Shown: positions 2,555 to 21,701, numbered from the stretch's first letter. The stretch is 26,491 bases of DNA from a virus (IMGVR_UViG_3300023105_000150:1-26491), one strand, 5' to 3'. The notes: generated from the letters alone by a model not told the origin. Translations and numbers: made by a program.

Positions 2555-5500
2555 TTATCTCAAGAAATAGTTGTATGCTATCGGTAAACCAAGTACAGTT
2601 TTAGTAAAGTTTACGTTTGCATTGATATTTATCTTCTCTCCAGACACCGTTGTAATTTGGTTGGTATTAACAAAGATGTCACCCGCTGTAACACTGTTAA
2701 CGTTTAGCTGAGCACCACCGCCACCAATTTGGGCTTCAATGTATGCTTTAACTGCACGTTGCGTAGGTACAACATTATCACTGTTTGCAGTGAAGAACGG
2801 GTCTGTACTAAACTCGTTAACTGCTGCTGAGTTACCACCTAATGTAACTTCACCAAGTGTAAGTTCTTGTAGACCTGCAATGTTAAACGCTTCAGCATTC
2901 AATGTTGCAACACCAGTGGCCTGTTCAATTTGGAACAAGTCACCAACTCTAAAGTTACCATCTTGGTCAGTTGATGTAAAGAACACTCGTCCGCCGTCGG
3001 CGTCTTGTGTTTCATACTGCGGATCTGGTTGTATTGTAGGTTGCCCCGGATAGTTAGTAGTTACAAAACCACCGGTACCTATGTCTAGGAAGTCGTGTCC
3101 TGTTAGACGTACCTGACTAAATCTAATACGCATTGTTACAGGATCATCGTTTGGTGGAGCATCTGCAATACTCATTTCTGGTGATAACTGCAAGAATGCA
3201 GTATATGAACCATCATTTTGACCAACAAATGACACTGTATTAACAAGTTTAAATACTTTGCCTGGTATACTATCAAACACAACGTTCGAACCTGAAACTG
3301 GTCTTTCTGTTAAACGTCTAATAGCAACATACTGTCCATCTTGGAAGAAGTCAGCACCACCGTTACTTGCATCAGCTTGTATTTCTGCACTTGCTGTAAT
3401 AAAGTTAGAACCTCTGTTTACAAAACTTGGATTACCTAGTACACCGTCTGCTGTTCTTACAATTAGTTCAACATCATCGATTGCACCAGGGTCTGTAAGT
3501 GTAAGTGTTGGTGCGCCTGCTGTATAGTTTGAACCTGGTTCAATTATTCTGATAGCAAACACTTTTTCACTTGCAACACTTGCTCTACCACGTGCTCTTG
3601 CACCTAAATAACTAGCATATGCTGTTGTGCCTGTTGATCCGGTAGTTACAAATTTACCTAATCTATCTGGATTACCAAATGCAATGTTTTCTCCGCCTAG
3701 TGTACTAGTTGTTGCTGTCCATGTAATACCATCTTCAGAGAAGTAGCCATTTCCGTTTGTGAGCTGCATGACAAACACACCTTGTCCATAAGCTATAGAA
3801 CTTGATGTTACAGCACCTAATGATGTTTGTCCAACATACCAAGTATCTCCGTCTAAACTATATCCTATTTGGCCACTGTCTGCCATTGCAACAAATCTAC
3901 CATTACCCCAAACAATGTCTTGCCAGTTCCACGCTGTTAATGCACTTACATCACTTGCTGTATTCCATGTTAAACCTTTGTCATTTGACCATGCAATGTT
4001 AGTTGTTCCTGGATCAACTGTTACAAATAATCCCATACCGTATGCAATTTTTTGATATCCAGGTCCTGGTAATGCTGCTGTAACTACTGTCCAACTAGCG
4101 CCACCGTTTAAACTGTATGCTACGTCTGATGTATTTGGATTAACTACAACAAATGCTCCTTCACCAAAGGCAATGCCATTTTCATTGGTGCCAAAGTTTG
4201 TTCCGATTGTACTAGTTGCCCAGTTATCTCCGTCTGCTGTGTATTGTGCAGTGTTAGTATTATTACCAACAATAACCATTGCACTTGGCTTATATGTCGA
4301 AGATCCATCGTCTAATAGTCCAGAAGCTGCATCTCTAGTTGCAAAACTTGCTGCTAGTGTATCTGTTGTCCAAGTGCTTCCATCAGTACTAACATTTACT
4401 GTTGAACCACTTGAGCCAAACACAAAGAACTTACCTTTTGCTGCTATTCCGCTAAAGTCAAAGTCTACAACAGAACCATCAGTTGCATCAATAGTTGTAA
4501 CTGTAATTGTAATATCGTGTGTTCCTGTTGTACCGCCTACGTCAGAACCGTCAATAGTAATAGTATCTAATCTTACATACTCTTCGCCGGCGTTGTTTAG
4601 TGTTACATAGTATTTTTCACCATTTTTAGTAACATCAAATGTTGCACCACTACCGTCGCTACTTGTTGTAGTACTTACATTAAAATACTGTGCAGCGTGT
4701 TCCATAAAATGTGCTTTAGAGTGTGTTTGACTCGAAGCAAGAGTTATACTATCTCTTGACTGCGGAGGAGCAGTAAATTCTACACACGGTTCAACAATAT
4801 ATGTTGAAGATCCGTTTGGTGAAACAATCGGTGTTCCAGAAAGTGCATGTTCCCAACCTGCTGTTCCGTCGTTCTTTAATACTGTAGCAATTTTTGAACC
4901 TGAGTTATAAGTATCAATTTTTGCATATTGTCCAACGCCTGCGCCGCCTGTAACATAAACTCTCATGCCTACATAAGCACTTGAAATTGAGCCGTCTGTC
5001 GCTGCGAGAGTAATACTTGTTAAACTACCTGCCTGTGCAGTGTTAGATACAACTGTATATCCGCTACCGCCTGCTGTATCTGGTGTTGTTTCATATACTC
5101 TAACTCTGTTAACAGCGTTATCGCGGAATTCGTCTGCAATTAGTTCTTCACCAGTACCTGCACCAAAAATATTAATTGTTGCTTCGGTATAATCATTACC
5201 AGCATGTGAATATTCTAGTGTAAGTATTCTATCAGTATCAGTAAGTACATTTCCGATTGTAGCATTATACTGTCCTGTGTTATCAACAACACCAGTTACT
5301 GGTGTTTCGTCTGGGTCTACGCCTTCTGCTACACTACCAAATGAACCGTAGGAGTTGTTACCATTTGTTGCACGAATACGTCCTCCGCTTTCAGCTAAGT
5401 AACCAATGTGTGAGTAGTATGTAAACACCGACACAAGTTCTGCTCTACCGTTGTTAGTGATCCAAGCACCAATACCGTCACTAATAACCTGTGTAAAGTC

Positions 5501-8500
5501 GTTTGACACCATTGAGTCGTTGCCACCGTTGTGTAATGCGCCGTCAATCTTTTGACCAACTGCTGCATTACCAAAACATGTACAGTTTTGCATATAAGGC
5601 GAACGTGCGCTAATCCACACACGCTCATCATCTGGACCCCAACCTGGATCTAGCGATGCATAAGCACCTGCTGTCGGACGTTTAGTTCCAAATTCGTTGT
5701 TTGGACTTAGGTCTCCGTTTAGACCATCTAGTGATTGTAATCTCAATCCAGTACCGTTACGCATGTAATAGAAATCTTCTTCTTGTGAACCTAATACACT
5801 GTTTACATAATAGCGTACTGCAAGTCTAGTTTTATATGCTCCCGGTAAGTATAGTTCAACACCGTCAGTATAAGATCTGTGCCATTCTTGTGGCCATTCT
5901 AGATCCCACTTAATTGCGTTAACATATTCTCTTACATCACGCTTACATTTTTCTTGACTATAATCGTAATCTTTGGCTACTGTATAAGTTGTAGTTACTC
6001 CTGTAAAGGATGAAAGGTTTCCTTGATCATCTTCAACTCTAAAATCAGTATTGCTTATAATTTCTCTGACATAATATGCTTGATTTTGAATTGAAACATT
6101 TTGTGATAGATCTGTTTCAGTGTCACCTGATTCTATACTAAACACAACTGGCATGCCTAATTCTAACCAACTAGTATCATCAATTGTTAGATAGTTTGAA
6201 GCGCCGCCAGGGTTTGCACCTACAGTGTTTGTAACTTGTGCTTTAAATCTATCTTGTACATACGCAACAACTTCTTCAGCAATAAAGTCTTTGTTTAGCT
6301 CTAGCATACGTATAGCATTCCAAACTTCTTGATCTGCTACAGCATCATTCCCGCCTTCTGCACTACCAGTCCAGATTGCGTCTTGGATCCATTCCCAAGA
6401 TTTTTCTAAACCTTCATCTGCTACATTTCCTGTTGGATTTGCATCTAATACTTCTTGAAGTTTCATTCTTGCAAATTCATTTGCAGCTATTGTAGCATCT
6501 TTTTGATCGCCTGTAACTTTTGCACTAGGACGTCTTAGATAACTGTATGCTGCAATAACACTAGCATATTCTGTTCCTAACATCCAATCATAACGTGCAG
6601 CGTCAAGTAATAGACCAAGGTCTCTTTGACACTTAGCATGATCGTAATTGAAATCATTATATGTGTCACTAATAAACTGAATAGTGTCAACAATTACTTG
6701 TGGTCTAGCAGTATCAATTGCTGCTTTTTCAGTTTGTAGTGTAGCACTTGCCCAAGTAATGCTTGGATATACTGCTGCTGGTAAACCGTTTAAAGTTCCG
6801 GCTGTAATAGCGGCAGTGATAATTGTAATTTTAGCATCTAATTCTGCTGCTTCGGTTGCAGTTGCAGGACTACCTAGTGTAGTTTGCAATTCTGAATGAC
6901 CACTTTGTGCTGTAACAGTTTGTTCTTGTACAATCTGTTGGATAATTGAACTTGCATGTGCATATGCTGCAACAGTTTGAAGTTCCTGACCGTATACTTG
7001 TGTAGTACCGTTGACAAAATAACTTTCTGCAACACGAGTTGTTGCTGCTGTTCCGCCATAAAGAATGTCATATGTCATTGCATCTACGATATAACCTACA
7101 TCTCTTTCACACTTGTCTGCATTGTAAATAAATGTTCCTGGCGGATTGTTAAATGTATTTTCAACATATTGTCTTACGTCTGCTTTAATAAAATCTCTGT
7201 TTGCAATTAGCAATTCCTTAGCATCAATTCTATTCTGATCTGCACCTGCTGGATTAGGGAATGTAAGTGCATCTGCTACACCATCACCTGGTTCAGTTGT
7301 ACTAATTGTTCCGTTTCTAATAATGTCGACAACTTCATTAATTGCATTTTCAAAACTAGTAGTTGCTGCTGCATCTGTAATTTCAGCTGCCATAAGATTT
7401 CTTGCATGTCTAATTGCACCAATAGTTTCTTTCTTTTGATTGTTTAACAAGTAAGCACTGTTGCCTCTTTGATATGCAATACCATTATAAACTTGGTTAT
7501 AGTTGGTACCAAATGCAACGTCATATGCAACATCGCCCAAAATATTTGTTAAATCTCTGCGACACTTAGCAGCATCATATTTAAAGCTACCAAAGTTTTT
7601 AGCAATAAAGTCAATTGTTTCTTCTTGAATAGTAGGTAGTTCATTAACACATGCAGTGCTTGCTGTAATTAAATTTGTGTTAACACCAACTAGTGAAGGA
7701 TAAGAAATACTTGCGTTTCCTGGGCCATTGTCAACAATATCAATCATATCGTCAATTAATGTTCCAATTGTAGTTGATTGTGTTGCTGTTCCGCCTACAC
7801 CTGTAACTTGTGCTACATCTGTTTGATAAACCGGCGTAACTGTAATGTTACGTTGCACTGTTTGCATTAGTGCTTTTAAATAGTTATAAGCAGCTAGTGT
7901 TGCTGTTTTTTCTTCACTATCAATTTGTAATGTTCCTGAAGCACCATTGAAGTACGCAAGTCCTGCATTTTGTGTCTGCCAGTTACCACCGTAAGTTAAA
8001 TCGTATGCAAGTGCATCGACAATAAATCCTACGTCTTGTTTACACTTAGTTCTGCTATAATCTAAATCCGGATATTGATCTGATAGATAAGCAACTACCT
8101 CAGCTTTTAAAAATTCTGCGTTTCTCCAAATAAGATCTCTTGCATGTCCGTTTTCTGGTACTGCCATATCGTTAGCAAGTGTAAGTGTTTTACGAGCTTC
8201 TTGTTTTAGTCCAAGACCAATATCAGCTCTACGTTTAATATTACGTGCTAGATCAGTAACTGCTTGTACAGATTGCGGATTTTCTGCATAAGGCCAGCTT
8301 ACATTTTGGTCTAAAGTATTACCTGTTGTAGGTGTTACTGCAACACCACTTACAATGTCTCCAATAATACTTTCCATATGATCCATTCCTGAATAAGAAT
8401 ACCAAAAATCTGTTTTTGGTGTTAGATCCGGAGTATTATAAATCGTTCTAGGTTGTACGTTAGTTGCACGAAGTTCGTCGCCCATAACACAACATTCTGC

Positions 8501-8659
8501 TGGAACCATAATAGGTAATGTTTCTTTATAAGATCCTGTTGCAACTCTAACAAGTGTTGTTCTTACTGCCTTTTCAGGAAGCGTACTAGTATCACCTGCA
8601 GTGATCGCATCTGTAACTATCTTTCCTAGTTGTGCGATATTCTCAAAAATTGTTGCCAT
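2555..8659 (-). CDS. Large virion structural protein, 2034 aa: five KCx(R/Q)D helical repeats, pectin-lyase-like beta-helix, BNR/Asp-box propeller, conserved C-terminal domain; C-terminal part of a split paralogue of 10679..16180
   Basis: Long ORF with GGAGG RBS. Blocks shared with the 1833-aa protein: VMGDELRAT, SLDPGWGPDDER, NDFTQV.SDGIGAWITNN, IRATNGNNSYG, GHDFLDIGTG, STDQDGNFR, EFSTD....NVVPTQ.A. S.DG..W repeats at about 3640-4430. Confidence 0.85.
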   Translation of the reverse strand: MATIFENIAQLGKIVTDAITAGDTSTLPEKAVRTTLVRVATGSYKETLPIMVPAECCVMGDELRATNVQPRTIYNTPDLTPKTDFWYSYSGMDHMESIIGDIVSGVAVTPTTGNTLDQNVSWPYAENPQSVQAVTDLARNIKRRADIGLGLKQEARKTLTLANDMAVPENGHARDLIWRNAEFLKAEVVAYLSDQYPDLDYSRTKCKQDVGFIVDALAYDLTYGGNWQTQNAGLAYFNGASGTLQIDSEEKTATLAAYNYLKALMQTVQRNITVTPVYQTDVAQVTGVGGTATQSTTIGTLIDDMIDIVDNGPGNASISYPSLVGVNTNLITASTACVNELPTIQEETIDFIAKNFGSFKYDAAKCRRDLTNILGDVAYDVAFGTNYNQVYNGIAYQRGNSAYLLNNQKKETIGAIRHARNLMAAEITDAAATTSFENAINEVVDIIRNGTISTTEPGDGVADALTFPNPAGADQNRIDAKELLIANRDFIKADVRQYVENTFNNPPGTFIYNADKCERDVGYIVDAMTYDILYGGTAATTRVAESYFVNGTTQVYGQELQTVAAYAHASSIIQQIVQEQTVTAQSGHSELQTTLGSPATATEAAELDAKITIITAAITAGTLNGLPAAVYPSITWASATLQTEKAAIDTARPQVIVDTIQFISDTYNDFNYDHAKCQRDLGLLLDAARYDWMLGTEYASVIAAYSYLRRPSAKVTGDQKDATIAANEFARMKLQEVLDANPTGNVADEGLEKSWEWIQDAIWTGSAEGGNDAVADQEVWNAIRMLELNKDFIAEEVVAYVQDRFKAQVTNTVGANPGGASNYLTIDDTSWLELGMPVVFSIESGDTETDLSQNVSIQNQAYYVREIISNTDFRVEDDQGNLSSFTGVTTTYTVAKDYDYSQEKCKRDVREYVNAIKWDLEWPQEWHRSYTDGVELYLPGAYKTRLAVRYYVNSVLGSQEEDFYYMRNGTGLRLQSLDGLNGDLSPNNEFGTKRPTAGAYASLDPGWGPDDERVWISARSPYMQNCTCFGNAAVGQKIDGALHNGGNDSMVSNDFTQVISDGIGAWITNNGRAELVSVFTYYSHIGYLAESGGRIRATNGNNSYGSFGSVAEGVDPDETPVTGVVDNTGQYNATIGNVLTDTDRILTLEYSHAGNDYTEATINIFGAGTGEELIADEFRDNAVNRVRVYETTPDTAGGSGYTVVSNTAQAGSLTSITLAATDGSISSAYVGMRVYVTGGAGVGQYAKIDTYNSGSKIATVLKNDGTAGWEHALSGTPIVSPNGSSTYIVEPCVEFTAPPQSRDSITLASSQTHSKAHFMEHAAQYFNVSTTTSSDGSGATFDVTKNGEKYYVTLNNAGEEYVRLDTITIDGSDVGGTTGTHDITITVTTIDATDGSVVDFDFSGIAAKGKFFVFGSSGSTVNVSTDGSTWTTDTLAASFATRDAASGLLDDGSSTYKPSAMVIVGNNTNTAQYTADGDNWATSTIGTNFGTNENGIAFGEGAFVVVNPNTSDVAYSLNGGASWTVVTAALPGPGYQKIAYGMGLFVTVDPGTTNIAWSNDKGLTWNTASDVSALTAWNWQDIVWGNGRFVAMADSGQIGYSLDGDTWYVGQTSLGAVTSSSIAYGQGVFVMQLTNGNGYFSEDGITWTATTSTLGGENIAFGNPDRLGKFVTTGSTGTTAYASYLGARARGRASVASEKVFAIRIIEPGSNYTAGAPTLTLTDPGAIDDVELIVRTADGVLGNPSFVNRGSNFITASAEIQADASNGGADFFQDGQYVAIRRLTERPVSGSNVVFDSIPGKVFKLVNTVSFVGQNDGSYTAFLQLSPEMSIADAPPNDDPVTMRIRFSQVRLTGHDFLDIGTGGFVTTNYPGQPTIQPDPQYETQDADGGRVFFTSTDQDGNFRVGDLFQIEQATGVATLNAEAFNIAGLQELTLGEVTLGGNSAAVNEFSTDPFFTANSDNVVPTQRAVKAYIEAQIGGGGAQLNVNSVTAGDIFVNTNQITTVSGEKININANVNFTKTVLGLPIAYNYFLR

Positions 8660-9175
8660 TTTTAGTAGCCTCCTCCGTATGCATTATTACCTCCGCTCGA
8701 TCCTGCTGGGGATGAATCTGCTGCTCCAGTTGATGTACCTGAAATTGTACCCTCGTACTCAGCTGTTGCTTGATTTCCGTATGCCGATATAAAATATTGT
8801 TCGACTATTGCTGTTGAATTGTCACCATTTTCAACTTGATAGATAGTATCTGGTGCTTCTTGAGCTAATACTTTTTCAATTAGTGTCAAGCCATAATTAA
8901 TACTTGCTACAGTTTCTGCTTTTTGATTTTGATAATCTGATGTAGCTGGAGCATTAATATAAGCCAGTGCCGCTTCTCTTGAACGTTCATTACCACCGTG
9001 TGTCATGTCCCAAACAAATGCGTCAATTAAAAAGCCCATATCTCTTTCACACTTTCCGGTGTCAAAATCAAAGTTAACTGTAAATGGTGCATTACCATTT
9101 GTACATTGAAACTTAGTCCATTCAACGATTTCTCTTTGAATAAATCTTCTATTTAATTCTAGTAAAGCTCTTGCC
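5820..9175 (-). repeat. Array of six ~150-160-aa helical protein repeats with KCx(R/Q)D...(Y/W)D motif, spanning two ORFs
   Basis: Cys codons at 9049-51, 8042-44, 7562-64, 7109-11, 6629-31 and 5945-47. Spacings within the 2034-aa ORF are 480, 453, 480 and 684 nt. Confidence 0.85.
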
Positions 9176-10632
9176 TGCGGTACTTTTGCACCTCTGTCAA
9201 TTTGTTCTGTTGCATAACGTATAGACTTAAATGGTCTATCCCAGTTTTTACCATAAATTGGTGATGGTAAATCTTGTCCGTGTTCTGCAACATAATACAC
9301 ATCATTTGCATTACCTAAGAATTCCCATTTTGGAATTCCGTCTTTGCTTACTGTAAGAATTTGTCCGTCTTGACCAATTGGTAATCTTGTAGGGGCTGTT
9401 CCACTGTAGTAGACCATGTCGCCTTTAGTATTGAGAACACTAGTCTCAGTACCAATTGCCATAACTGACCAATACTGTCCACTATCTGCTAAATCTGGTC
9501 TAGATCCTTCCGCACCTGAACTTAGTGACGAATAGTCATCACCTTCTGATATGTGTCCTTGAATACATACATATGAGTTGTCACCATAACGTACAACATC
9601 ACCTTCGTAATATTCTCTGTCATCTAACCATTCGCCTTTCCATTCAAAGCCACTGTTCATTCTTTCCCAGTAGTCTGTGTTTGGCGGTTGCTGGTTAGAG
9701 TGTTCAACTGTACATCTATAAGTATATCCACCTAAACGTACAACATCACCCGGCTCATAAACTTCGTTTGTAGAGTCGTCATTCCAGTCGCCTAAGAATC
9801 TAAATCCTGAGCTAAACAAATCCCAGTCAGCAGTGCTGCTTGGCGGCTTAACTGCATTGTTATCTGTTTTAGCAATATATTGATTTCCGCCATAACGTAC
9901 AATGTCGCCTGGCTGATAAAATGCTGTTGGTATCCATCTATCTTCAAACTGAATACCTTCTACAAACTTTTCCCAGTTTGCACTGTCTAGTCCAAATGTT
10001 CCACTTGCTGTATGATATTGTGTTGCAATCCATAGTGTACCACCAAACTTTACAACGTCATTTACTTTATAGCGTGTTCCTGCAACCCATTCTTGCTTCC
10101 AGTCAAAGCCTTGGTTCATTAATGTCCAACTAGATGAATTTGCTTCTAGTCCGTCTGCTGTTGTTGCTGCTGAAGTGTGGTCATCTGTACAAACATAAGT
10201 TGCACCACCATATTTAACAGTATCATTAACACGATAATCGGTACTTACAGTCCAGTCACCTTTAAATTCTAAGCCGTCGGCAAATACTTGCCACTTATCT
10301 AAATCAGCTTCTAGGCCTGTTGTGCTGTCTTCTGCACTAGTATGAACTTCTTGACAAATATAAAGTCTAGGACCATAACGAACAATATCGTTAGGATTGT
10401 ATCTTTCTTGTGGAGCCCAATCACCTTTCCAAGTTTGACCATCACTTATTAGGTTCCATTTTGAAGGTGTAATATCTAAGTCAGTAAAAAAGTCAGCCGC
10501 AGCAGTGTGTCCTATAACACAGATGTATATTCTACCACCATATGCTATTACGTCATCTTTATAATAAACTGTAGAGGTAGCCCAATCGTTTTTCCAAACA
10601 AATCTAATTCTACCTAACTTAAATTCTGCCAT
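8662..10632 (-). CDS. Virion protein, 656 aa: seven CBM5/12-like (chitin-binding type 3) repeats plus the start of the beta-helix cap and one KCERD repeat; N-terminal part of the split paralogue
   Basis: MAEFKL N-terminus shared with the 1833-aa ORF. Seven 'W.....Y...D.V.YGG..Y.C...H.S.....W' units. 'VYYVAEHG.D...PFKSIRYA' matches 'VVYVAENG.D...PFRTVRYA'. Confidence 0.85.
   Translation of the reverse strand: MAEFKLGRIRFVWKNDWATSTVYYKDDVIAYGGRIYICVIGHTAAADFFTDLDITPSKWNLISDGQTWKGDWAPQERYNPNDIVRYGPRLYICQEVHTSAEDSTTGLEADLDKWQVFADGLEFKGDWTVSTDYRVNDTVKYGGATYVCTDDHTSAATTADGLEANSSSWTLMNQGFDWKQEWVAGTRYKVNDVVKFGGTLWIATQYHTASGTFGLDSANWEKFVEGIQFEDRWIPTAFYQPGDIVRYGGNQYIAKTDNNAVKPPSSTADWDLFSSGFRFLGDWNDDSTNEVYEPGDVVRLGGYTYRCTVEHSNQQPPNTDYWERMNSGFEWKGEWLDDREYYEGDVVRYGDNSYVCIQGHISEGDDYSSLSSGAEGSRPDLADSGQYWSVMAIGTETSVLNTKGDMVYYSGTAPTRLPIGQDGQILTVSKDGIPKWEFLGNANDVYYVAEHGQDLPSPIYGKNWDRPFKSIRYATEQIDRGAKVPQARALLELNRRFIQREIVEWTKFQCTNGNAPFTVNFDFDTGKCERDMGFLIDAFVWDMTHGGNERSREAALAYINAPATSDYQNQKAETVASINYGLTLIEKVLAQEAPDTIYQVENGDNSTAIVEQYFISAYGNQATAEYEGTISGTSTGAADSSPAGSSGGNNAYGGGY
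9456..10620 (-). repeat. Seven tandem ~50-aa CBM5/12-like repeats
   Basis: Visible in the translation; conserved Trp, Tyr, GG, Cys and His pattern. Confidence 0.75.
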
Positions 10633-10678: not shown

Positions 10679-13600
10679 TTATAATTCATTATTAATGTTT
10701 CTCAAGAACAACATTTGACTTATTATTGTTCCGTCTATACTTACAGGATTACCACCTGCTGATCCTTCAAATGTTACTGGAACATTAATGTTCAAATAAC
10801 TATCGTCTGTCATTTCAATTACGTTTGCGTCAGTACCAACTCTAACTCGACCAGCAACAAATGCGTTTGTCTCTAGGTTTTCACCGCCAACGGACAATCT
10901 ATCTGCTAAGAATGTTGCAATCGCTTTCTGTGTTGGAACAACATTGTTTGAGTCTTCTGACATAGTTGCGTCTGTTGAAAATTCTCTAACGACAGCACCC
11001 GAACCACCAAGTCTAACACCACCAAGTGCAAGTTCACTTAGACCATCTAAGTCAAAGAATTCTGCACTAATAGTAACAATACCAGTTGCCTGTTCAACAG
11101 CAAAAAGCTCACCTGCCCTAAAGTTACCATCTTGGTCAGTACTTACATAGAATACTCGTCCACCGTTTAATTCTTGTACTTCATTTTCCGGAGCACTTGT
11201 AAAATATGCGCCGCCTGCATAAAGTTCAGGATAGTTTGTTTCTAAGAAGTTACCAGTACCAATGTCTAGGAAGTCGTGTCCTGAAATACGACACTGTGAA
11301 TATCTTCTTCTTAGTGTTGCTTGTGTTCCGTGTGCTAAGTTGTTTTCGTTTCTTAGTCTAGGTGTAATACTAAATCTTACAGTTCTAGTATTATTTCCTG
11401 ATCCATCGTCGCCTAAATCAGTTGCAGTAACACCTACATAAAGTTTTAGATCGTCTGGGTCGTCTGTTGTGTCGTCAAGTATTCCGTTGATTCTAATTTG
11501 TACACCAGGACCTGGTATGATTCCAATACCGTCTAATGTTAGCGTATTTGATTCTTCAATAATATCAGCGTAACCATTACCTGTAATAGAAATAGTCGAT
11601 GTAGATGTTCTATAGCCTGCACCTCTATTTACAAAGTCAGGCTGTGCTAATACGTTATTACCAAATCTTTGCTCAAACTCTGCCTCAGTAGTATACTGAG
11701 TGTCAGTAACAGTTATAGTCATGTCATCTTCGTATCCGCTACCTGGATCCCAAATTTTCATTGACTGGAATTTGCCTTGGAAAATATCAGCCCTTAGTAG
11801 TGCCTGTTTTCCTAAGTAAAGTTTATTTCTTCCACTGCTTGACGTATTAGCAAGAACTTGCCATGTAGGTCTTGATTCTAATTCGCCAGTTCCGCCAAGT
11901 GCTCTCCATTTTTTTGCACTAGCAAGTAAACGTCTTTCCCATAGCACTCCGTATTCAGTAGTGTAAATAAAATCAATATCGTCTTCGTTTAGTTGAATTG
12001 CAATTTCATCCATTGTAAATTTTTGTCCAATAGCAGCAAACACACCTTGACTAAATCTTAATTTAGTAAAATTAAATATTTGATATGTAATATCTACATC
12101 GTCTGGGAATATTCTATCAGCTAGATACCAATTTACTGCATCTATACTATATGTAACAAAGCCGTTGCTTGATAGTGCTAAGAATCTGTTATTACCGTAT
12201 TCTAAGCCAACAATATCCCAGTTAGTATTTTGATCAAGTGCTTCTTCAACCCTTGTCCAAGATATACCATCTGAGGAATAAGCAACATCAGTAAAGTTAC
12301 TTGATATTGCAACAAATTTACCGTTACCATATGTTACATGATCCCATTTAACTGTTGACGAATCTCCTGATGCTTGATCTGGAATATCTGTTAGACTCCA
12401 GGTTAATCCATCATCACTATAAGAAACGTTATTTGAACTTTGAGAAATAATTACAAATCTGCCGTTACCATATGCGCCGTCAATCCAATCCTCTGTTGTA
12501 GGAAGTGCTCTAGTAGTCCAGCTTTCACCTGTAAATGTAAATGAACATCTATTGTCGTTTCTAGCAATCGCTACAAATCTGTCATGTCCTGGAACAATGC
12601 GTACCCAATCTCCTGAAAATCCTAAAAGCTCGTTTGTATAGTTAACACCGTCATCACTGTATGATGCTATGTTAGGATTTGCAACAGTCATCCAACGACC
12701 GCGTCTACCTTTTCCTTCAAAGGTATAGTTTACAATACTAGATGAGCTATCATCTGATACTTCAGATACAGTAATTGTAATATCGTTATCAGGAGTTACG
12801 CCGTCAAGTCTATCACCTGTAATTACAAATTGATCACCGACTGCATAACCTCTGCCTGGCAAACTTAGTACTAGTTCATACTCTCTGTTAGCTCGAGTAA
12901 TGTTAAATGTTGCTTCTGCAGGATCGTCATCGTATGTATCGCCTGTTCCTGTTCCAACTGAAACGTTGTTAAAAATATTTCGTGTACCGCCAAATACAAT
13001 ATCGTTATATTCAGTATCTGATTGTAAGTTAGCAACAAATGTTCTATATGTAGGTGGAGTTGTCTCTATTCTAGGTTCAATTCTATATCTAGCAGTTGAG
13101 TCTAGTGATGCTCTAATAGGAGTTCCAGGAACAATATGATCCCATCCAAGTTCTCCGTCGCTTTCTCTTCTAACTGTAACATCTCTAGTTACTGCATCAA
13201 AGTCTACAATATATGCATACTGTCCAGCACCTTGACCTGATGTTATAAGAATTCTCATTCCTTCAATTTCTGATAAAAACTGTGTAGGATCTGTTGCTGA
13301 CAATCTAATTGTTGAGGTAGAATCTGGTGTAATCTGAGCACTACCTTGTCTAGAAAGATATCCTGCTCCGCCTTCTTGACCAGATCCTTGGGTGTTAATT
13401 AGTCTAGCTTCAAACAATGAAGATGATCTGAAGTCTCTAAATTCAACTTCGGCATCGTCACCAGCACCAGTAATTGTTGCATCTGCTTGTGTATATTCTT
13501 CGCCGCAGTTTGTATATTCAAACAAGTAGATATGATCGTTTGCGCCTCCAGCAAATGCTTCGCCTACTTGTGCTTCGTTTTCTCTGTTGTTAACTGTAAC

Positions 13601-16180
13601 AGCTTCAGGTATTTCGTTAGGATCGTTACCGTCTGCAACTGAGCCAAAATCACCATAAGAGTTGTTACCATTAGTAGCACGAATAACTCCTCCATTTTCA
13701 GCCAAATAACCAACTTGGTTGTAGTATGTAAACACAGACACAAGTTCTACTCTAGCGTTATTAGTAATCCATGCTCCGATACCATCACTTAGTACTTGAG
13801 TAAAGTCGTTAGCTGTCATTGACTTGTTGCCGCCATTGTGTAGTGCGCCATCAACTTTCATACCTACACAACGATCGCCGATATTTGTAACACCTTGTAT
13901 GTAAGGAGATCTATTTTTAATCCACGTGCGCTCGTCGTCTGGACCCCAACCTGGATCTAAACTAACACATGCGCCGCCTGTTGGTCTTTGATACAGATCA
14001 AAAACACCTGGAGGGTTTAGGTTTCCTTCTAAACCGTAAATAGTCATTTGGCGTAAACCTGTTGTATCACGCATATAGAATAAGTCTTCTAGTCTACTAC
14101 CATTTACATAAGATACATAACGTCTTGCTGATTGTATAGTTGCATAGTTTCCGTCATAGTTTAAATCTCTAATAAGACCTCTAAGTAAACTTCTTGCATC
14201 ATTTTTTAGTCTGTTTAATTCAAATGTTTCATTAGGATATCTATCAATGATATAGTATGCAATTTGACATGCTAAAAATTCTTTGTTTGCATCAATAATT
14301 CTTGCAGCACTTGAGCGTTGAGTAACTGTGGTTAGGTCATTAGTTCCTGTAACATCAACTACAATGGCGCCATCGTCGACACGGTATTCTACGTAGTTCT
14401 GCCAATCGTCAATTAATTGATTTACTACGTTAATTGCTGTTTGTCCTGAAGGTGGTAAATTAGTAATCTGTGTCAGTGTATTACCGGGTGCTATTTCGTC
14501 CATTATAGACTGATTTAGCAGCATCATTTCTAACCACTGCTTAGTTCTTAGTAAGTAATCTCTAACAAATTCAATATCGCCTTCGTATCGTGGATCAGGA
14601 TCAGATGCTGAAACTACAGTTGCACGTAATTCGTCTCCCATTACAACCGTCTTAGCTGGAACAATAATAGGACCAGCTTCTTGATATGTACCTGTTGCAA
14701 TTTGTACTTTTGCTAATTTTCCATCAAGGTTATCTTCTACATATTCACATGCATATCTAACAGTTCTAAACGGATGAGTAGCGTCTAATCCTCGACCCGG
14801 TTCGTCAATTCCGTTTTCTGCAACATAAACAACATCAGTATCAGTTGATAAATTCCTCCAGAATACTTCATTGTCGGAGTTTATACTTAAAAACTGTGCT
14901 TCCTCACCAATTGGAACTGCTACGTCACCTAGCGTACTACCGTCGCCTTTAGTTAAAAAGTCTTTTAGACCATAAGATAATAGATCGCCCTTTGCTCTTA
15001 GTCCACCTTCAAGACCTGCTTGAATTAATAAATCCCAATAATCGTATCCTGAACCGTTATCTCCAGGATAATTATTTGGTTCTGATTGATGCTCTTCTGT
15101 ACATATCCAAGAAGTACCAAGATAGTTTACAACATCGTTTCGACTGTATAACTGTCCAGGAACCCAACTACTTCTATTGTTTTTACCTGATACTACTAAT
15201 TCCCATAGGTCGCCATCTAGATAATCTTTTGCACTGTCGTCACCTTGAGATATGCCAATATCTTGTTTGGCCATAAGCAAGTTACCGCCACGATGTACTA
15301 TGTCGCCTGGCTTATATTGTGCATTTGGATCCCATTGTCCTGCAAACGCTTGTGTTTTAGCAATAATACTCCAATAAACGGTACTATCATCGTTTGAAGG
15401 ATTTTGGTCTACGCTGTTCTTTTCTGCATACCATAAAAAACCGCCATAGGTTACAATGTCGCCTTGGTTATAAGCTGCTGTGCTATTCCAGTCACCACTA
15501 AATTGATTACCTGGAAATTCTAATACAAATTTTGTATCATCTAATGTAGAAAGACTTATATGAGTTTCTGTACAACGGAATATTGAACCACCATAACGTA
15601 CTAAATCGTTTTGTCTATACTCTGTTGTATCAACAAAATCTCCTCTATATTGTATACCGTCAACAAATATTTCCCAAGCATCTGCATCATCTTCAAGATA
15701 GGTTTGGCTAGTATGAGCTTTAATACATTTATATACAATACCGTTATACTTTAATAATGCACCATAGCCGTAGTTTTGATTTGACTGCCATTCTTCTTGA
15801 TAAGAAATATGTCTAGCAAAAATTTTCCACTTTTCTTCGTTATCTTCAAAAGCAGCTGAGATATGACTTTTTGTACATTCCCAAAGTGTACCACCAAACA
15901 AAACAACATCACCAATATTGTATGCAATATTAGTTGCCCACATTCCATAGAAATATTTGGATGCGGTCATTACAACCCATTTTGGTTCTGGTTGTGGCGG
16001 ATCTGAGTCAGGTAGTATTGCTTCTAAATCTTCTGCAAATACAGCTTTAGAAATATGTGAAATCAAACATACATAACTTCGTCCGTTAATACGAATAATG
16101 TCATCGCGTGTATATTCCTCGCCTGGCTGCCATTCGCCTCGCCAGTTATACTTAAATCTATCTAACTTAAACTCTGCCAT
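10679..16180 (-). CDS. Large virion structural protein, 1833 aa: 7 CBM5/12-like repeats, one degenerate Cys-less helical repeat, pectin-lyase-like beta-helix, BNR propeller, C-terminal domain
   Basis: Long ORF with AAGGA RBS. 'YGNGRFV...YS.DG..W' propeller blades at about 11850-12700. Collinear with the 656+2034-aa pair. Confidence 0.85.
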   Translation of the reverse strand: MAEFKLDRFKYNWRGEWQPGEEYTRDDIIRINGRSYVCLISHISKAVFAEDLEAILPDSDPPQPEPKWVVMTASKYFYGMWATNIAYNIGDVVLFGGTLWECTKSHISAAFEDNEEKWKIFARHISYQEEWQSNQNYGYGALLKYNGIVYKCIKAHTSQTYLEDDADAWEIFVDGIQYRGDFVDTTEYRQNDLVRYGGSIFRCTETHISLSTLDDTKFVLEFPGNQFSGDWNSTAAYNQGDIVTYGGFLWYAEKNSVDQNPSNDDSTVYWSIIAKTQAFAGQWDPNAQYKPGDIVHRGGNLLMAKQDIGISQGDDSAKDYLDGDLWELVVSGKNNRSSWVPGQLYSRNDVVNYLGTSWICTEEHQSEPNNYPGDNGSGYDYWDLLIQAGLEGGLRAKGDLLSYGLKDFLTKGDGSTLGDVAVPIGEEAQFLSINSDNEVFWRNLSTDTDVVYVAENGIDEPGRGLDATHPFRTVRYACEYVEDNLDGKLAKVQIATGTYQEAGPIIVPAKTVVMGDELRATVVSASDPDPRYEGDIEFVRDYLLRTKQWLEMMLLNQSIMDEIAPGNTLTQITNLPPSGQTAINVVNQLIDDWQNYVEYRVDDGAIVVDVTGTNDLTTVTQRSSAARIIDANKEFLACQIAYYIIDRYPNETFELNRLKNDARSLLRGLIRDLNYDGNYATIQSARRYVSYVNGSRLEDLFYMRDTTGLRQMTIYGLEGNLNPPGVFDLYQRPTGGACVSLDPGWGPDDERTWIKNRSPYIQGVTNIGDRCVGMKVDGALHNGGNKSMTANDFTQVLSDGIGAWITNNARVELVSVFTYYNQVGYLAENGGVIRATNGNNSYGDFGSVADGNDPNEIPEAVTVNNRENEAQVGEAFAGGANDHIYLFEYTNCGEEYTQADATITGAGDDAEVEFRDFRSSSLFEARLINTQGSGQEGGAGYLSRQGSAQITPDSTSTIRLSATDPTQFLSEIEGMRILITSGQGAGQYAYIVDFDAVTRDVTVRRESDGELGWDHIVPGTPIRASLDSTARYRIEPRIETTPPTYRTFVANLQSDTEYNDIVFGGTRNIFNNVSVGTGTGDTYDDDPAEATFNITRANREYELVLSLPGRGYAVGDQFVITGDRLDGVTPDNDITITVSEVSDDSSSSIVNYTFEGKGRRGRWMTVANPNIASYSDDGVNYTNELLGFSGDWVRIVPGHDRFVAIARNDNRCSFTFTGESWTTRALPTTEDWIDGAYGNGRFVIISQSSNNVSYSDDGLTWSLTDIPDQASGDSSTVKWDHVTYGNGKFVAISSNFTDVAYSSDGISWTRVEEALDQNTNWDIVGLEYGNNRFLALSSNGFVTYSIDAVNWYLADRIFPDDVDITYQIFNFTKLRFSQGVFAAIGQKFTMDEIAIQLNEDDIDFIYTTEYGVLWERRLLASAKKWRALGGTGELESRPTWQVLANTSSSGRNKLYLGKQALLRADIFQGKFQSMKIWDPGSGYEDDMTITVTDTQYTTEAEFEQRFGNNVLAQPDFVNRGAGYRTSTSTISITGNGYADIIEESNTLTLDGIGIIPGPGVQIRINGILDDTTDDPDDLKLYVGVTATDLGDDGSGNNTRTVRFSITPRLRNENNLAHGTQATLRRRYSQCRISGHDFLDIGTGNFLETNYPELYAGGAYFTSAPENEVQELNGGRVFYVSTDQDGNFRAGELFAVEQATGIVTISAEFFDLDGLSELALGGVRLGGSGAVVREFSTDATMSEDSNNVVPTQKAIATFLADRLSVGGENLETNAFVAGRVRVGTDANVIEMTDDSYLNINVPVTFEGSAGGNPVSIDGTIISQMLFLRNINNEL
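15020..16170 (-). repeat. Seven tandem CBM5/12-like repeats
   Basis: Same motif and copy number as in the 656-aa ORF. Confidence 0.75.
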
Positions 16181-16191: not shown

Positions 16192-16635
16192 TTAGTATCC
16201 TACACCTTGACTACTACTTTCGCCTGTGACTATTACATCTCCATCATTTCCGTCGCCATATGCTGGACTCGAAATTTTGTCAGGATATTCATACGCTTCT
16301 GAAATTCTTTGTATAAAGAATCCTGTTTCTGGATCAATGTAATATAACAATGATCTATTATCAAACTTGAACTGCGGATAGCGCAAGTTAGGATACAAAA
16401 CATTTTTATTAATGTCAATGCCATCTAAAACATCAATACCTTCTTCAAAGTCTGGATAGTTATCTTCAGCAACACCTAAGTCGTTAATAATAACTACGTT
16501 TTCGTCGCCGCCTCTAAGTTGGTCAACTACTACTAAAAATAGTTCACCGTCATCATTTCTTCTTAGTCCGTAGAAATAGCGTTTAATAAACCCTGATTGT
16601 ACTTCGCTTGGACTTGTACCAATATAGTAACTCAT
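16192..16635 (-). CDS. Hypothetical phage protein, 147 aa, acidic
   Basis: Fills the gap in the operon. Its ATG overlaps the upstream stop (TAATG). No recognisable family. Confidence 0.75.
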   Translation of the reverse strand: MSYYIGTSPSEVQSGFIKRYFYGLRRNDDGELFLVVVDQLRGGDENVVIINDLGVAEDNYPDFEEGIDVLDGIDINKNVLYPNLRYPQFKFDNRSLLYYIDPETGFFIQRISEAYEYPDKISSPAYGDGNDGDVIVTGESSSQGVGY

Positions 16636-16970: not shown

Positions 16971-19900
16971 TTATCCAAATATTAATACTTTCTCAATCGC
17001 AATGTTTTCTGCATCTGCAAAACTAATACCACCTGACGAACCTGCAACAGACACCCAACTTGTTCCGTCATATAGTTCAACTCTAGCATCAGACGTATTA
17101 TAACGTATCATGCCTTGTACACCTGCTGGTCTAGTAAAATTATCACCAACTGGTAAAACAATACCATACGGATCAACAAACTCATAGTAGCCGTTACCTG
17201 ATGTTGTAAACACCATATTGCTATTGTTAACAACATTTGTTAATCTATTTCCACTAAAACCAAAGTTTTCAAAATTAACAGATCCTGTTCCATTTGCTGA
17301 CAGTTGTAAGTCTGTATTTGCTGTTACAGTACTTATCAAATTACCATTGACCTCGACGTCATCAACGGTTAGTTTTTCTACATTAAATCTATCTTTGTCA
17401 AGATCTGCAACAACATTTCCTTGGACAGTAAATCTAATAATATCATCATTAGCACCTTCTGTAAGTTCTGCTGTAACTTTAGTGTTGCCGTCTAAATCTT
17501 CTACACCTTTTAAATTAATCCAATTAGATCCGTTGTAACCTTCAAATCTGTTTCTTTCAGTATTCCATCTAATTGCACCCGTAACATCTGTACGTTGTGC
17601 ATTTGTACCTTGTGGTATTACAACTTCGCCAGTGCCTGCAAATACAACACTGTTATCGCCTGCACTGATTTCTAAATCACTATTTGAAATAGTAATTTGA
17701 TTTGCATTAATTGCAATATCATCAATAATAATACTACCTGTACCGTTTGCACGTAATTCTAAATTACTGTTGCTTGTTGTTGTAGTAATATAGTTGTCGT
17801 CTACAAGTATATCGCCTGTAGTAAAGTTGTTTGATGTGATAGTACCAACACTAACAATATCTCCAACTGTTAATGTTCCGTCCACTGTAAGATTATTTGT
17901 TATTACAACATTATTGTTTGGAACATATATAGAACCTGTTCCATTTCCTCTTAATTCTAAATCTGAATTAGAATCTGTTGTAGTAATAACGTTGTCATCA
18001 ATTAGTATGTTTTCAAACTGGAACGCTCCTGTTACATTAAAGTCTCCGGTTATGTCAAGATCGCCTGTAAGTGCATAGTTACCAGTTTGTGTAGTATTTC
18101 CAACATGTGTAACTGTGCCGTTAATTGTTGTATTAGAAAGTGTTGTCTGACCGTTAACTGTTAGATCTTGTTCTATAACAACATCGTTGCTTGGTACACT
18201 AATTGTTCCAGTACCATTTGCACGTAGCTCTAAGTTTGCATTTGATACTATTGTTTCAACTACATTGTCAAAAACCTTTATAGACTCAGTACTAAAACTA
18301 CTTGCTGTTATAGTCTGAGAACTATTTAAATCTGTAACTGTTAGCGTGCCTTGTATTTCTGCGCTTCCGGTAATTACAACATCGTTACTAGGAATAATAA
18401 CTTTACCTGTTCCGCTTGCACGTAATTCTAAATCACTATTTGAAGCAGTAGTAGTAATAAAATTATCGTTAATTTTAATATTTTCAAATTGTGCAGTACC
18501 AGATACTGTAACATTGCCGGTTATATCAATGTTACCTGTTTGTACAAAATTACCTGTTTGTGTTGTGTTACCTACGTGTGTTATTGTACCTGTAATATTT
18601 GTATCTTGTAAATCTGTTGTTCCGTTAACTGTAAGATTTTGTGCAATCTCAACGTCTGTGCTTGGAATATTTACTTTGCCAGTTCCGTTTGCATTTAATA
18701 CAAGATCTTCGTTTGTAATTGTGTTTTCGATTACATTATTATCAATTAAAATTGTACCGTTAGTAAAACTATCTGCTGTAATTGTGCCTGTGCTTGTAAT
18801 GTCAACAGTTGTAGTAGTACCGTTAACTGTAAAATCGTTTTCAAATACTACATCATTTAAAGGAACGTAAACAATACCTGTACCTGCTGCACGTAATTCT
18901 AAGTCAGCATTTGATGTAGTTGTAGTAATATAATTGTCATCTATTAGTATTTCTTCAAACTGTGCTGCTGCACCAACAGTTAACGATTGTCCTATGTTAG
19001 CATCGCCTGTGAGTGCATAGTTACCAGTTTGTGCTAAGTCACCAACTAGTGTAAACGTACCAGTAATGTTTGTGTCTTGTAAATTTGTAGTTCCATTAAC
19101 TGTTAGATCTTGTTCTATAACAACATCGTTACTTGGTATAAGTATTTCGCCGCTACCGTTTGCTCTAAGTTCTAAATCTGCATTAGAAACAACAGTTTGA
19201 ATAAAGTTATCTCTAATTTGTATATCGCCTACATTTGATTCAACAACGTATAAATTGCTCCAACGTTTAGTGTCGGTACCTAAGCTATAGGTGTCATCAG
19301 TAGCTGGTACTAAGTTACTTTCAATACCTGCAATAATACTAATAGTATCGCCTGCGTCATCACCAATAGTAATATTACCACCAATTGTTACATTGCCTGT
19401 TACATCTAAGTCGCCAGTGATATTAACATCGCTGTTTAAATTTAATTGTCCACTTGCTGGTGTAAAATTAGCATCTCCACTAACTGTTTCAATTGTGTTT
19501 CCACTAAATCTCCAATTACCTGTTTCAATTTTAGTACCGTCGATGAATGTAGTTTGACCGTCTGTATTAAATGTTACACCATCAGTAGTATTAATTGTAA
19601 AATCAGAAACACTAAAGTCTACACTACCAGTTGCTTGATCAACTCTAAATAAATCACCAACTCTAAAGTCGCCTTCGTGATCAACTGAGTTATATCGTAT
19701 TTTTGCACTGTTAGATTCTACAACTTCGTTTGCTTGTATTACTGTTCCAGGGTCGTTAGTAACTTCTTTTCCGTTGCCAATATACGCAAGGTTATGTCCA
19801 ATAGCATACATAAGCACACCTGGACCATCGCCTACTAATCCGTAGTTACCGTACACACTTGCAGAACCTATTGATCTTACTTCAGCACCAAACTCTCTAA

Positions 19901-21701
19901 AATCAACATCTATTATTTCAGTAGCAGTTGCACCGCCGCTTGATGATATGCTAAGTGGAGTATAATCAAAATCTAAAAAGTCTTCTTTTTTACCTTGGAT
20001 CCAAACAACATCGCCATCTACTTCATCAATTGTTCCTGTAATAACTGTTGAGTTATCTGTAGAAGTAAATGTAATTGTTTCTGTTGCTGCAAATGTTCCG
20101 GTAATTCCATCAAGTCTAACTCGTGTTCTACCTGCACCATACTTACCATCGTTGCTATCAAATAAGAAGAAACCTCTATTAGCAAAATATGAGAATGAAT
20201 TCAACCATTCAACTCTAACACCGTTAGTACAAGTAATAGCATCAACACCCGGCGTAATAAACGTTGCCGAATGGAACAACATGCTTGCTTCTCTACTGTT
20301 AGTAGTAGCATACGCACCGTCAATATAAGCACCTTTACCTGCATCGCCTGCATTAAATCCTCTAGGATCTTCTAGTGTAGTTGTGCTACCTTTTGTGATT
20401 ACAGTTATATTTTTAATGTATGGTGAACGACTAGTTACTTCAAAGTCTGTTGCAAAGCGGAAAGCATAACCGTTGTCTGGAAATATTCTATTGCCGCCAT
20501 TACAGCTAAATGTTAAATCGCTAATAAAAACATTTGTTCCTATACCTGCGTCTGGACCTGCGTGTGTAATAACAACAACGCCTGTAGTATGATCATATGT
20601 TGCATTAGTTATAGCATAATCAGTGCTACTAATATTGATAGTTCCGCCACTGACATAAGTATGAGCAAAAGGAGCAGTGCCAACATTGATGGTCGCACTT
20701 CCTGCACTTGCTGCTGTTGTTTCATAAAAGTTTCCGCCGCTATAAAAGTCTGCAATAGTGATATCTTCTATTGTAGCTTCACCGTTTAGTAAGAATGCAT
20801 CGTTGTATCTTGTTTCTGTAGTAGGAACAATTTTAACTGATCTAAGACCTTCGCCTTTTAAAGCTACTCCTACCGGAACACTAATAGGAAATATTTCAGT
20901 ATAGATACCAGGTGCAATATGAACAGTATCGCCGTCTGTTGCAACACTTAATGCATGTTTAATACTCCCAAATGGATCTTGTGGATGGTCGCCTGAATGA
21001 TTGTCTTCGCCGTTTTCTGCAACGTAATAAATGTTACCTTGTCTTAGTGTTAGATCAACTCCGTCTACAATAGTTAAATCAGCTTCAATTGCAGTTGCTC
21101 GTAGTTGATTAACATAAACGTCTTTCCAGGCTTTAGTAGCTGTACCTAGTTGATAAGTGTTATGCTGATCTGGAATAATATCTGAAGAAACTTCAGCGTT
21201 AAAAACAACATAATCTGTATCAGCATCACCTAGTCTAATACTTCCGTCTGCACTAATATCTCCAGTAGCATGTATGCTACCATTTACATCCATGTTACCA
21301 TATACATCTACAAGACCTGTGCCGTTTGGACGAAGTTCTAAATCTGCGTTAGAATCATTTGTACTAATAACATTGCCTTCAATATCAATGCTGTCAATAC
21401 GAAGTTTGTTTTGATAAACAATATTATCAAAACTACCTAAATTTAAATATGGTTGATTAGACGAAATTGTAGAGCCTTGAACAGTTATATCAGCTATATC
21501 TGCTCTGTTGTCTACTATAAGATTAGTTGTTTGAAGTGTTCCGTTAACTTGTAATTCGTGCGTAGGAGCTGTGGTCTTGACGCCAACACGCTGATTATTA
21601 ACATCTAAATATAGAAGGTCAGTCTCAAATGCCAAATCAATCCCATTACGGATCAAGTTTGACTTCAAGAGCGGACCGCTAATACGACCTAGTGCGCTCA
21701 T
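16971..21701 (-). CDS. Long tail-fibre-like structural protein, 1576 aa: beta-helix-like N-half, periodic 'DN.ITT..SN.DLELRA.GTG' shaft, C-terminal 'G....RP...G.IRYNT....E.Y.G..W' motifs
   Basis: Long ORF with AAGGAG RBS. Thr/Asn/Gly/Ile-rich beta-fibre repeats. Paralogous to the upstream gene. Confidence 0.85.
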   Translation of the reverse strand: MSALGRISGPLLKSNLIRNGIDLAFETDLLYLDVNNQRVGVKTTAPTHELQVNGTLQTTNLIVDNRADIADITVQGSTISSNQPYLNLGSFDNIVYQNKLRIDSIDIEGNVISTNDSNADLELRPNGTGLVDVYGNMDVNGSIHATGDISADGSIRLGDADTDYVVFNAEVSSDIIPDQHNTYQLGTATKAWKDVYVNQLRATAIEADLTIVDGVDLTLRQGNIYYVAENGEDNHSGDHPQDPFGSIKHALSVATDGDTVHIAPGIYTEIFPISVPVGVALKGEGLRSVKIVPTTETRYNDAFLLNGEATIEDITIADFYSGGNFYETTAASAGSATINVGTAPFAHTYVSGGTINISSTDYAITNATYDHTTGVVVITHAGPDAGIGTNVFISDLTFSCNGGNRIFPDNGYAFRFATDFEVTSRSPYIKNITVITKGSTTTLEDPRGFNAGDAGKGAYIDGAYATTNSREASMLFHSATFITPGVDAITCTNGVRVEWLNSFSYFANRGFFLFDSNDGKYGAGRTRVRLDGITGTFAATETITFTSTDNSTVITGTIDEVDGDVVWIQGKKEDFLDFDYTPLSISSSGGATATEIIDVDFREFGAEVRSIGSASVYGNYGLVGDGPGVLMYAIGHNLAYIGNGKEVTNDPGTVIQANEVVESNSAKIRYNSVDHEGDFRVGDLFRVDQATGSVDFSVSDFTINTTDGVTFNTDGQTTFIDGTKIETGNWRFSGNTIETVSGDANFTPASGQLNLNSDVNITGDLDVTGNVTIGGNITIGDDAGDTISIIAGIESNLVPATDDTYSLGTDTKRWSNLYVVESNVGDIQIRDNFIQTVVSNADLELRANGSGEILIPSNDVVIEQDLTVNGTTNLQDTNITGTFTLVGDLAQTGNYALTGDANIGQSLTVGAAAQFEEILIDDNYITTTTSNADLELRAAGTGIVYVPLNDVVFENDFTVNGTTTTVDITSTGTITADSFTNGTILIDNNVIENTITNEDLVLNANGTGKVNIPSTDVEIAQNLTVNGTTDLQDTNITGTITHVGNTTQTGNFVQTGNIDITGNVTVSGTAQFENIKINDNFITTTASNSDLELRASGTGKVIIPSNDVVITGSAEIQGTLTVTDLNSSQTITASSFSTESIKVFDNVVETIVSNANLELRANGTGTISVPSNDVVIEQDLTVNGQTTLSNTTINGTVTHVGNTTQTGNYALTGDLDITGDFNVTGAFQFENILIDDNVITTTDSNSDLELRGNGTGSIYVPNNNVVITNNLTVDGTLTVGDIVSVGTITSNNFTTGDILVDDNYITTTTSNSNLELRANGTGSIIIDDIAINANQITISNSDLEISAGDNSVVFAGTGEVVIPQGTNAQRTDVTGAIRWNTERNRFEGYNGSNWINLKGVEDLDGNTKVTAELTEGANDDIIRFTVQGNVVADLDKDRFNVEKLTVDDVEVNGNLISTVTANTDLQLSANGTGSVNFENFGFSGNRLTNVVNNSNMVFTTSGNGYYEFVDPYGIVLPVGDNFTRPAGVQGMIRYNTSDARVELYDGTSWVSVAGSSGGISFADAENIAIEKVLIFG
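17757..19172 (-). repeat. Three 471-nt (157-aa = 91+66) tandem shaft units
   Basis: Equivalent codon of L(E)LRA at 19170, 18897, 18699, 18426, 18228, 17955 and 17757, alternating 273 and 198 nt. 35-nt identity between 18154..18188 and 19096..19130. Confidence 0.9.

Follow-up and report, generated by a model that had tools for sequence, protein, structure and literature searches.

A giant phage fibre-type gene probably divided before the last helix of a phycobiliprotein-fold domain

We analysed a 26.5-kb virus record (IMGVR_UViG_3300023105_000150:1-26491; 'the window' hereafter means this whole stretch of 26,491 nucleotides), whose large genes all lie on the minus strand, as do the features given below with window coordinates. 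Its subject here is a pair of adjacent open reading frames (ORFs): ORF A, of 656 aa (8662..10632), and ORF B, of 2,034 aa (2555..8659). We consider it very probable that these are the upstream (N-terminal) and downstream chains of one giant fibre-type protein whose gene has been divided before the last helix of a phycobiliprotein-fold domain, and that the two chains, likely coupled in translation, likely reassemble non-covalently. The cut site, the stop-start junction with its Shine-Dalgarno (SD) sequence, a new tail on A, purifying selection and fused orthologues in the same place can all be read from the sequences. The divided protein is a structural one, broken within two nested folds, and a short coding tail is all that has been inserted.

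A preliminary description of this DNA had proposed that the gene is split in mid-domain and that A and B together equal one protein of the type of an 1,833-aa paralogue (C; 10679..16180), which is unsplit. ORF A residues 1-479 align to C 1-482 (E = 8e-74) and ORF B residues 37-243 align to C 492-695 (E = 4e-18); because these are consecutive parts of C, a motif that is contiguous in C is divided here, and the mid-domain split stands. That A and B are halves of one protein also holds, but C is not their whole-protein counterpart: its sequence matches the flanks and lacks the inserted domain where the cut lies. The equivalents are instead fused orthologues of 2.3-3.1 thousand residues, which occupy the same genomic place in related genomes. 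When a profile of the cut domain was built from 24 fused homologues, its positions 1-136 fell on A 482-617 and positions 141-161 on B 3-23, and the same profile covered an intact internal repeat, B 479-621, with positions 5-160. The N-terminus of B is thus the last helix of the inserted KCERD-type repeat, as had been described.

The junction is whole, on one contig and with 0 gaps, in 8/8 assemblies, four of them (two from RNA libraries, two from DNA) compared over 8200-9300 and four, all from RNA libraries, over 8300-9100. These assemblies share one habitat and may include the source of the record, and conservation is the stronger argument against error. Whether homologues are fused or split at this site, a question raised with the preliminary description, was answered in both ways. 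Among 89 proteins of similar length, 79 (one being the window's own) share this stop site and have a tail of the same kind, ending 39-68 residues past the anchor; the other 10 end elsewhere and look truncated or frameshifted. Of the best 120 of 355 longer homologues, 111 are fused and run through the site in one frame, and 9 are without the anchor pattern used for classing. Counted by locus, the best 80 of 391 in IMG/VR comprise 38 split and 42 fused forms, and the best 80 of 308 in metagenomes (two being the window's own sequence) comprise 62 split, 16 fused, one at a contig end and one whose tail is interrupted by a stop. Since the query contained the tail, the two rankings are weighted towards split forms, and these counts are not frequencies. 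L152 carries a split-type junction with TGA inside the tail, apparently through a short indel, which may be an error or mark a pseudogene.

The split site and new tail are common to relatives down to about 57% identity, and the window, three split genomes and one fused genome have their genes in the same order, none of them carrying an additional gene at the junction. Compared with an 80%-identical relative (L007), A had a ratio of nonsynonymous to synonymous substitution (dN/dS) of 0.12 overall and 0.25 across its last 45 codons, and B one of 0.21 overall and 0.10 across its first 80 codons, which indicates that both halves are under purifying selection. One lost base beside the A run could give the window's 2-nt gap, but with 8/8 assemblies in agreement, the site and the 40-aa tail shared across these relatives and dN/dS far below 1 on both sides, the chance of an assembly error or a recent pseudogenising lesion is virtually negligible, and conservation already refutes it. 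The earlier statement that the break is 'not a simple lesion' was borne out on the same grounds. The idea of an evolved fission, in which two chains would complete one fold in trans, is supported by the conserved site, the fused orthologues, the selection and the fact that A is short of exactly the helix that starts B.

At the junction itself, ORF A ends in GGA GGA GGC TAC TAA, followed by 2 nt (AA) and the start of B, ATG GCA ACA; stop, gap and start together form the coupling junction (8657..8664). The last Gly codons of A contain an SD sequence, GGAGGAGG (8669..8676), in which GGAGG occurs at 8676-8672 and 8673-8669, 12 and 9 nt before the B ATG. The ribosome-binding GGAGG in the tail codons, the short gap and the ATG had all been pointed out before and were found in the junction DNA. 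Among 59 distinct split junctions, the stop-to-start gap is -1 (a TAATG overlap) in 49, +3 in 5, +2 in 4 and +5 in 1, so that stop and start are never more than 5 nt apart (59/59), below the 10 nt of coupled pairs. The stop codon is TAA in 59/59, B starts with ATG-GCN-ACN, and GGAGG or AGGAG lies upstream of the B ATG in 57/59. GGA encodes the Gly two positions ahead of the final residue in 55/59, against 129/432 for the other tail Gly codons; because this bias sits at the SD position, Gly-Gly is held by the SD.

In the portion of PMC3711429 drawn on here, the signature of translational coupling is a conserved co-location of stop and start within 10 nt. The split junctions share this feature with the coupled gene pairs of that work, as well as an SD inside the upstream gene, but they separate two halves of one domain, whereas the same portion of the paper assumes that a conserved domain is not divided between genes. 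Overall, the junction looks like translational coupling, not recoding.

The fold around the cut, and the incompleteness of chain A alone, are model predictions. A fused homologue (L034) was modelled over 971 residues from a 49-row alignment, with a mean predicted local distance difference test score (pLDDT) of 83.7 and a predicted template modelling score of 0.85. The model contains a strand (8-11), a helix (34-43), a helical domain (48-203) and then further strands (217-252); the last helix of the helical domain (187-203) follows a loop (165-186), and the cut falls in that loop. In the window, the first strand and capping helix of the predicted right-handed beta-helix correspond to A ~445-481 (9190..9300; model strand 8-11 and helix 34-43). 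They are followed by the phycobiliprotein-fold domain short of its last helix, placed by the profile and by VIA-align at A 482-617 (8782..9189), with a C-x-R-D motif (Cys528, codon at 9051); the cysteine of this motif is the bilin site in phycobiliproteins. The helix missing from the ORF A domain is B 3-23 (8591..8653; profile positions 141-161, model helix 187-203, within the first 80 codons of B with their dN/dS of 0.10), and the next strands of the predicted beta-helix are B 36-66 (8462..8554; model strands 217-252, aligning with C 492 onward).

An intact sister repeat matched phycoerythrin beta with Z 15.4 and a root-mean-square deviation (rmsd) of 3.4 over 143 aligned residues, reaching the C-terminus (VIA-align), and the sister repeats in the L034 model match phycoerythrin and phycocyanin beta subunits to their C-termini. 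Folded alone, A 438-656 (mean pLDDT 67, first strand lost) also matches phycobiliproteins (VIA-align Z 10.3-11.3, rmsd ~2.6, 120 residues aligned at Z 11.3), and its alignments end at residue 161 of 177 in phycoerythrin beta or 156 of 172 in phycocyanin beta, 16 short. In these models, A would be without one helix and its strand partners, and B would start with them. The phycobiliprotein assignment draws on the sister repeat (Z 15) and on the finding that 50/50 listed matches are phycobiliproteins. Foldseek E-values were weak (0.03-0.6), with no match to the PDB at E 0.001 for either model; a solved-structure sequence search with the cut-domain profile returned 0 matches at E 1; and the Pfam family PF00502 matched neither ORF A nor the 24 fused copies of the cut domain and missed its gathering score on ORF B (19.9 bits against a cut-off of 22.2). 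Phycobiliprotein subunits (PF00502; PDB 7ap5, 2vjh and 6hrn) are thus alike in predicted fold (Z 15.4 for the sister repeat, 11.3 for the cut domain) and in the C-x-R-D motif. They differ in sequence (~10-18% identity), and here the repeats are embedded in a phage fibre, with the cut copy split between two genes. For the beta-helix part, BFVD matches were to DUF1565 and pectinesterase-labelled phage proteins (rmsd 2.8-4.4); the label also draws on the cap motif.

We propose that ribosomes finishing A would re-initiate on B and so would yield roughly matched amounts of the two chains. The N-terminal helix of B would pack into the groove of the A helical domain, and the next strands of B would stack under the A beta-helix cap. 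The two chains would in this way rebuild the fibre that is formed by a single chain in fused relatives.

The split form is kept in dozens of lineages beside the fused form. Over the 300 residues downstream of the cut, a single split clade was rejected (6 changes; approximately unbiased test, p-AU 0.002), and split and fused forms interleave, a pattern that suggests exchange by recombination. For the 300 residues upstream, a FastTree phylogeny of 157 proteins needed 7 changes, 6 of them forced by starred branches. The trees are unrooted, which leaves the direction of exchange unset. One protein, P0065, shares 96-100% identity with P0147, a fused form, for its first 500 residues; from there on it shares 86-98% identity with P0034, a split form. 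Because split forms share the tail motif, a terminal aromatic residue and the M-A-T start, a single origin of the split can be inferred, and the simplest reading is that one cassette moved between backgrounds by recombination. Fusion is probably ancestral, because C and the homologous gene of Pelagibacter phage Mosig (one 1,245-aa ORF) are single chains. A split cassette that arose once and was swapped with fused alleles would imply that both forms build a working particle. These phages offer a natural test of how a long fibre copes with a chain break.

Chain A ends in a tail that is essentially confined to ORF A among the loci compared. A Ser/Gly tail had been described as about 30 residues long; it is present, but the new part measures about 40 aa, a conserved motif and then some 30 Gly/Ser-rich residues. 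The motif, QYF-xxx-LG-x-Q-xx-V-E-Y-E (A 612-632; 8737..8799), retains its G, Q and Y in 75, 71 and 78 of the 79 split proteins, respectively. In the model of A alone it is ordered to about residue 626 (pLDDT 70-86). It follows the loop as far as the point at which the missing helix would begin, and it may pin that helix. The rest of the tail (8665..8754) is Gly/Ser-rich, variable in length and predicted to be disordered (last 30 residues with pLDDT under 50), and it ends in Gly-Gly-Gly-Tyr. Gly and Ser make up 56% of residues across tails, and the last residue is Tyr in 71, Phe in 7 and Asn in 1 of the 79 proteins. In the junction DNAs it is Tyr in 59/59, encoded by TAC in 51/59, although the window genes prefer TAT 3:1; it may be a docking motif or a termination context.

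Three ideas about this tail were discarded. A duplication in which the motif would derive from the beginning of the missing helix is not supported (over 69 tails the best profile score averaged -6.1, and that of shuffles -5.8); hopping over the stop to an in-frame Tyr codon in B is possible in just 11/59 junctions; and the notion that Ser/Gly-rich Tyr tails are common among cyanophage baseplate proteins did not hold in the first 34 listed P-SSM2 genes, of which one ends in GGVGY. Elsewhere in the window, a conserved 147-aa gene (16192-16635; PHROG 8997, function unknown) has a variable tail ending in Gly-Tyr like that of ORF A. The Tyr end on a variable tail recurs in 9/12 distinct listed loci plus the window, often with the SD of the next gene after the stop. 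Other TAATG junctions have an aromatic last residue in 4/24.

The same fission may additionally have been selected for a new function, a possibility that we regard as somewhat unlikely and that adds to an evolved, coupled split without excluding it. The tail would then be a flexible arm, docking through its C-terminal Gly-Tyr on a chaperone or a further virion protein; alternatively, the break would be a hinge, or a plug allowing separate exchange of the distal 2,000-aa module. The invariant Tyr of the junction DNAs and an aromatic end in 78/79 proteins despite varying linker length speak for this, as do the nearly invariant tail motif and the similar end of the 147-aa cluster gene, set beside the 4/24 of other TAATG junctions. 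Against it, the TAC preference points to a constraint acting at the RNA level, G-Y, G-F or G-N endings recur in several coupled genes that are unrelated, since SD codons give Gly, and fused forms thrive without a tail. More doubtful is a fuller picture in which the split cassette would be a traded helix-in-groove connector, joining a proximal anchor chain to a separate distal chain, with a candidate bilin-binding domain completed when they meet and the Gly-Tyr arm serving as an assembly or docking signal shared with another cluster protein.

The remaining alternatives would join A and B into one chain. The preliminary description had suggested occasional bypassing of the T4 gene 60 type, with take-off at GCA-ACA in the tail and landing at GCA-ACA after the ATG. 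A hop in the window would indeed restore the loop length of fused homologues, and the double codon match is there. It is, however, found in the window only, 1/59 distinct junctions (a single GCA match occurs in 18 and a single ACA match in 7), the nearest relatives carry GCT at the landing side, and the matched codons are thus not conserved. In the part of PMC7026636 used here, gene 60 bypassing depends on codons that match, on a stop directly behind the take-off codon, on a stem-loop and on a gap that is non-coding. The two systems share a pair of frames summing to one protein in a T4-like phage and, in this one genome, a codon match across the break. They differ in that sense codons follow the take-off site here, where gene 60 has its stop and stem-loop; the skipped 113 nt between the matches are an open, conserved coding tail of variable length; and ORF B keeps its own conserved start and SD. 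Junction RNA showed no folding signal (mean z -0.19, 0/26 regions below -2), although a very short local hairpin would escape this whole-junction test. The DNA repeats cited in support do exist, GCATACGGA at 8784 and 8682 and GCAACA at 8769 and 8656, but neither exceeds chance. Some 9-mer repeat is found in 17-20% of shuffles of the 271-nt region and in 13/50 real 271-nt windows of these genes, the first GCATACGGA copy is not kept in the 80%-identical relative, and GCAACA occurs 32 times on this strand. We therefore consider bypassing very unlikely, and the split does not add a new case of it.

A programmed -1 frameshift or stop read-through, with the tail kept as a loop, is quite unlikely. 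The same frame relation (-1, +2, +5) holds in 54/59 junctions, and in many loci the B frame stays open for as many as 20 codons ahead of the ATG; however, 5/59 junctions are in frame 0 and have only a single open codon there, the window has just 8, no slippery heptamer was seen by eye in the printed junctions, and the invariant TAA together with the preserved ATG, SD and spacing speaks against it. Removal of tail, stop and SD from the RNA as a small intron, or joining of the proteins after translation in the manner of a split intein, would have precedent in the introns and split inteins of T4-like phages, going by the parts of PMC2988022 and PMC2677866 consulted. Yet the junction is intact in six RNA-library assemblies (contigs that prove presence rather than absence and may be DNA), no joint was found in four RNA-library assemblies at 95%, the junctions show no conserved RNA structure, Pfam finds no intein domain in A or B, and the tail is coding and under purifying selection. 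Such splicing is extremely unlikely.

Several points weigh against a coupled fission of a phycobiliprotein-fold fibre as we describe it. It rests on sequence and predicted structure. According to VIA-align, helical bundles can reach a Z of 10-11, the score of A alone, by common arrangement, and the name 'tail fibre' comes from PHROG and GenBank labels, with no sequence match to a solved structure. P0065, the clearest single recombinant, comes from a single contig of 2.8 kb, which may be chimeric through assembly. Over the 176 columns immediately preceding the cut, a single clade of split forms was not rejected (59 rows, p-AU 0.72), which makes the number of exchanges uncertain. Finally, coupling alone does not account for the terminal Tyr and its TAC preference.

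Split genes for enzymes broken by mobile inserts are already known from T4-like phages. Examples in the part of PMC2988022 available are Aeh1 nrdA, the T4 topoisomerase gene 39/60 and the DNA polymerase gene 43A/43B of Aeromonas phages 25 and 44RR. As there, one uninterrupted coding region has been broken into two polypeptides that have to come together again, and relatives keep one gene. The cases in that part of the paper are enzymes cut by a homing-endonuclease gene or, in 44RR, an untranslated insert; here the protein is structural and fibre-type, no gene or spacer separates the halves (gap -1 to +5 nt, 59/59), a conserved coding tail has been added to the upstream half, and split alleles are common, as are fused ones. 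Reassembly is described there as shown for the split enzymes, whereas here we infer it. In the literature searched, mostly outside subscription journals, no paper on the split or on this fibre family was found. Annotators should treat the 'tail fibres' of 650 and 2,050 aa in these phages as probably one protein, and the cut domain (~180 residues plus a 20-residue helix) is a ready-made split phycobiliprotein-fold domain that could be tried as a protein tag.

As to the genomic setting, the listed sequencing runs carrying window DNA are all salt-marsh metagenomes (24/24). The major capsid gene Gp23 is present in 5/5 relative records, and the window's 26-kb record is without a capsid gene. From CheckV completeness of relatives (for example, 155 kb at 44%), their genome size is inferred to be ~350 kb or more, which would make this a T4-like (Gp23) marine jumbo phage. 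The cultured relatives, Kyanoviridae cyanophages and the pelagiphage Mosig, match at 21-49% identity, and no match reaches 80% coverage of ORF A or ORF B. PHROGs label window genes as tail fibre and baseplate wedge proteins, and ORF A matches PHROG 9851 (tail fibre, E = 4e-116). The PHROG 9851 tail-fibre-like proteins of Kyanoviridae (P-SSM2, S-CAM1, S-SSM7) and of Mosig share the N-terminal Trp-rich repeats, a beta-helix-type core and a C-terminal domain, and differ by this low identity and partial coverage and, in Mosig, by the shorter single ORF. The Trp-rich repeats of ORF A form 6 stretches matching CBM_5_12 (9340..10632, lower bound approximate; Pfam PF02839, E = 2e-40). ORF B (2555..8659) contains further phycobiliprotein-fold repeats, a predicted beta-helix body and a conserved C-terminal domain.

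Within the phycobiliprotein-fold repeats (2555-10632) are six C-x-[RQ]-D motifs, at A Cys528 and B Cys206, 366, 517, 677 and 905, which are candidate bilin attachment sites in a virion fibre. Fe_bilin_red was found in 0/5 partial relative genomes, an uninformative result as these are only 21-44% complete. In Mosig (L085 29604-30840), annotated heme oxygenase and phycocyanobilin:ferredoxin oxidoreductase (PcyA) genes lie ~6 kb downstream of the fibre homologue. One repeat seems circularly permuted or nested, both in the window at ~5870-8450 (B 70-930) and in paralogue C 530-700: helices like the last two of the domain come first (B ~85-160), and the rest, which has a beta-rich insert, lies near B 780-925, several intact repeats being found between the two parts, as judged from secondary structure and profile matches alone. 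Among relatives (L008, L009, L021, L028, L032 and L037; L053, L054 and L081) the number of helical repeats varies: the downstream chain measures ~2,035-2,115 or >2,300 aa, and fused forms have 4 to 13 C-x-x-D motifs before the beta-helix end.

Two further paralogous giant proteins, of 1,576 aa and at least 1,544 aa (open at the window end), occupy 16971-26491; PHROGs label them baseplate wedge, and they carry the same beta-helix cap motif. At the other end (25-1740) are two paralogous glycine-rich proteins of 284 and 282 aa (PHROG 863, Pfam Gly_rich_2-like), which have His-rich C-terminal segments and both end in Tyr-Tyr.

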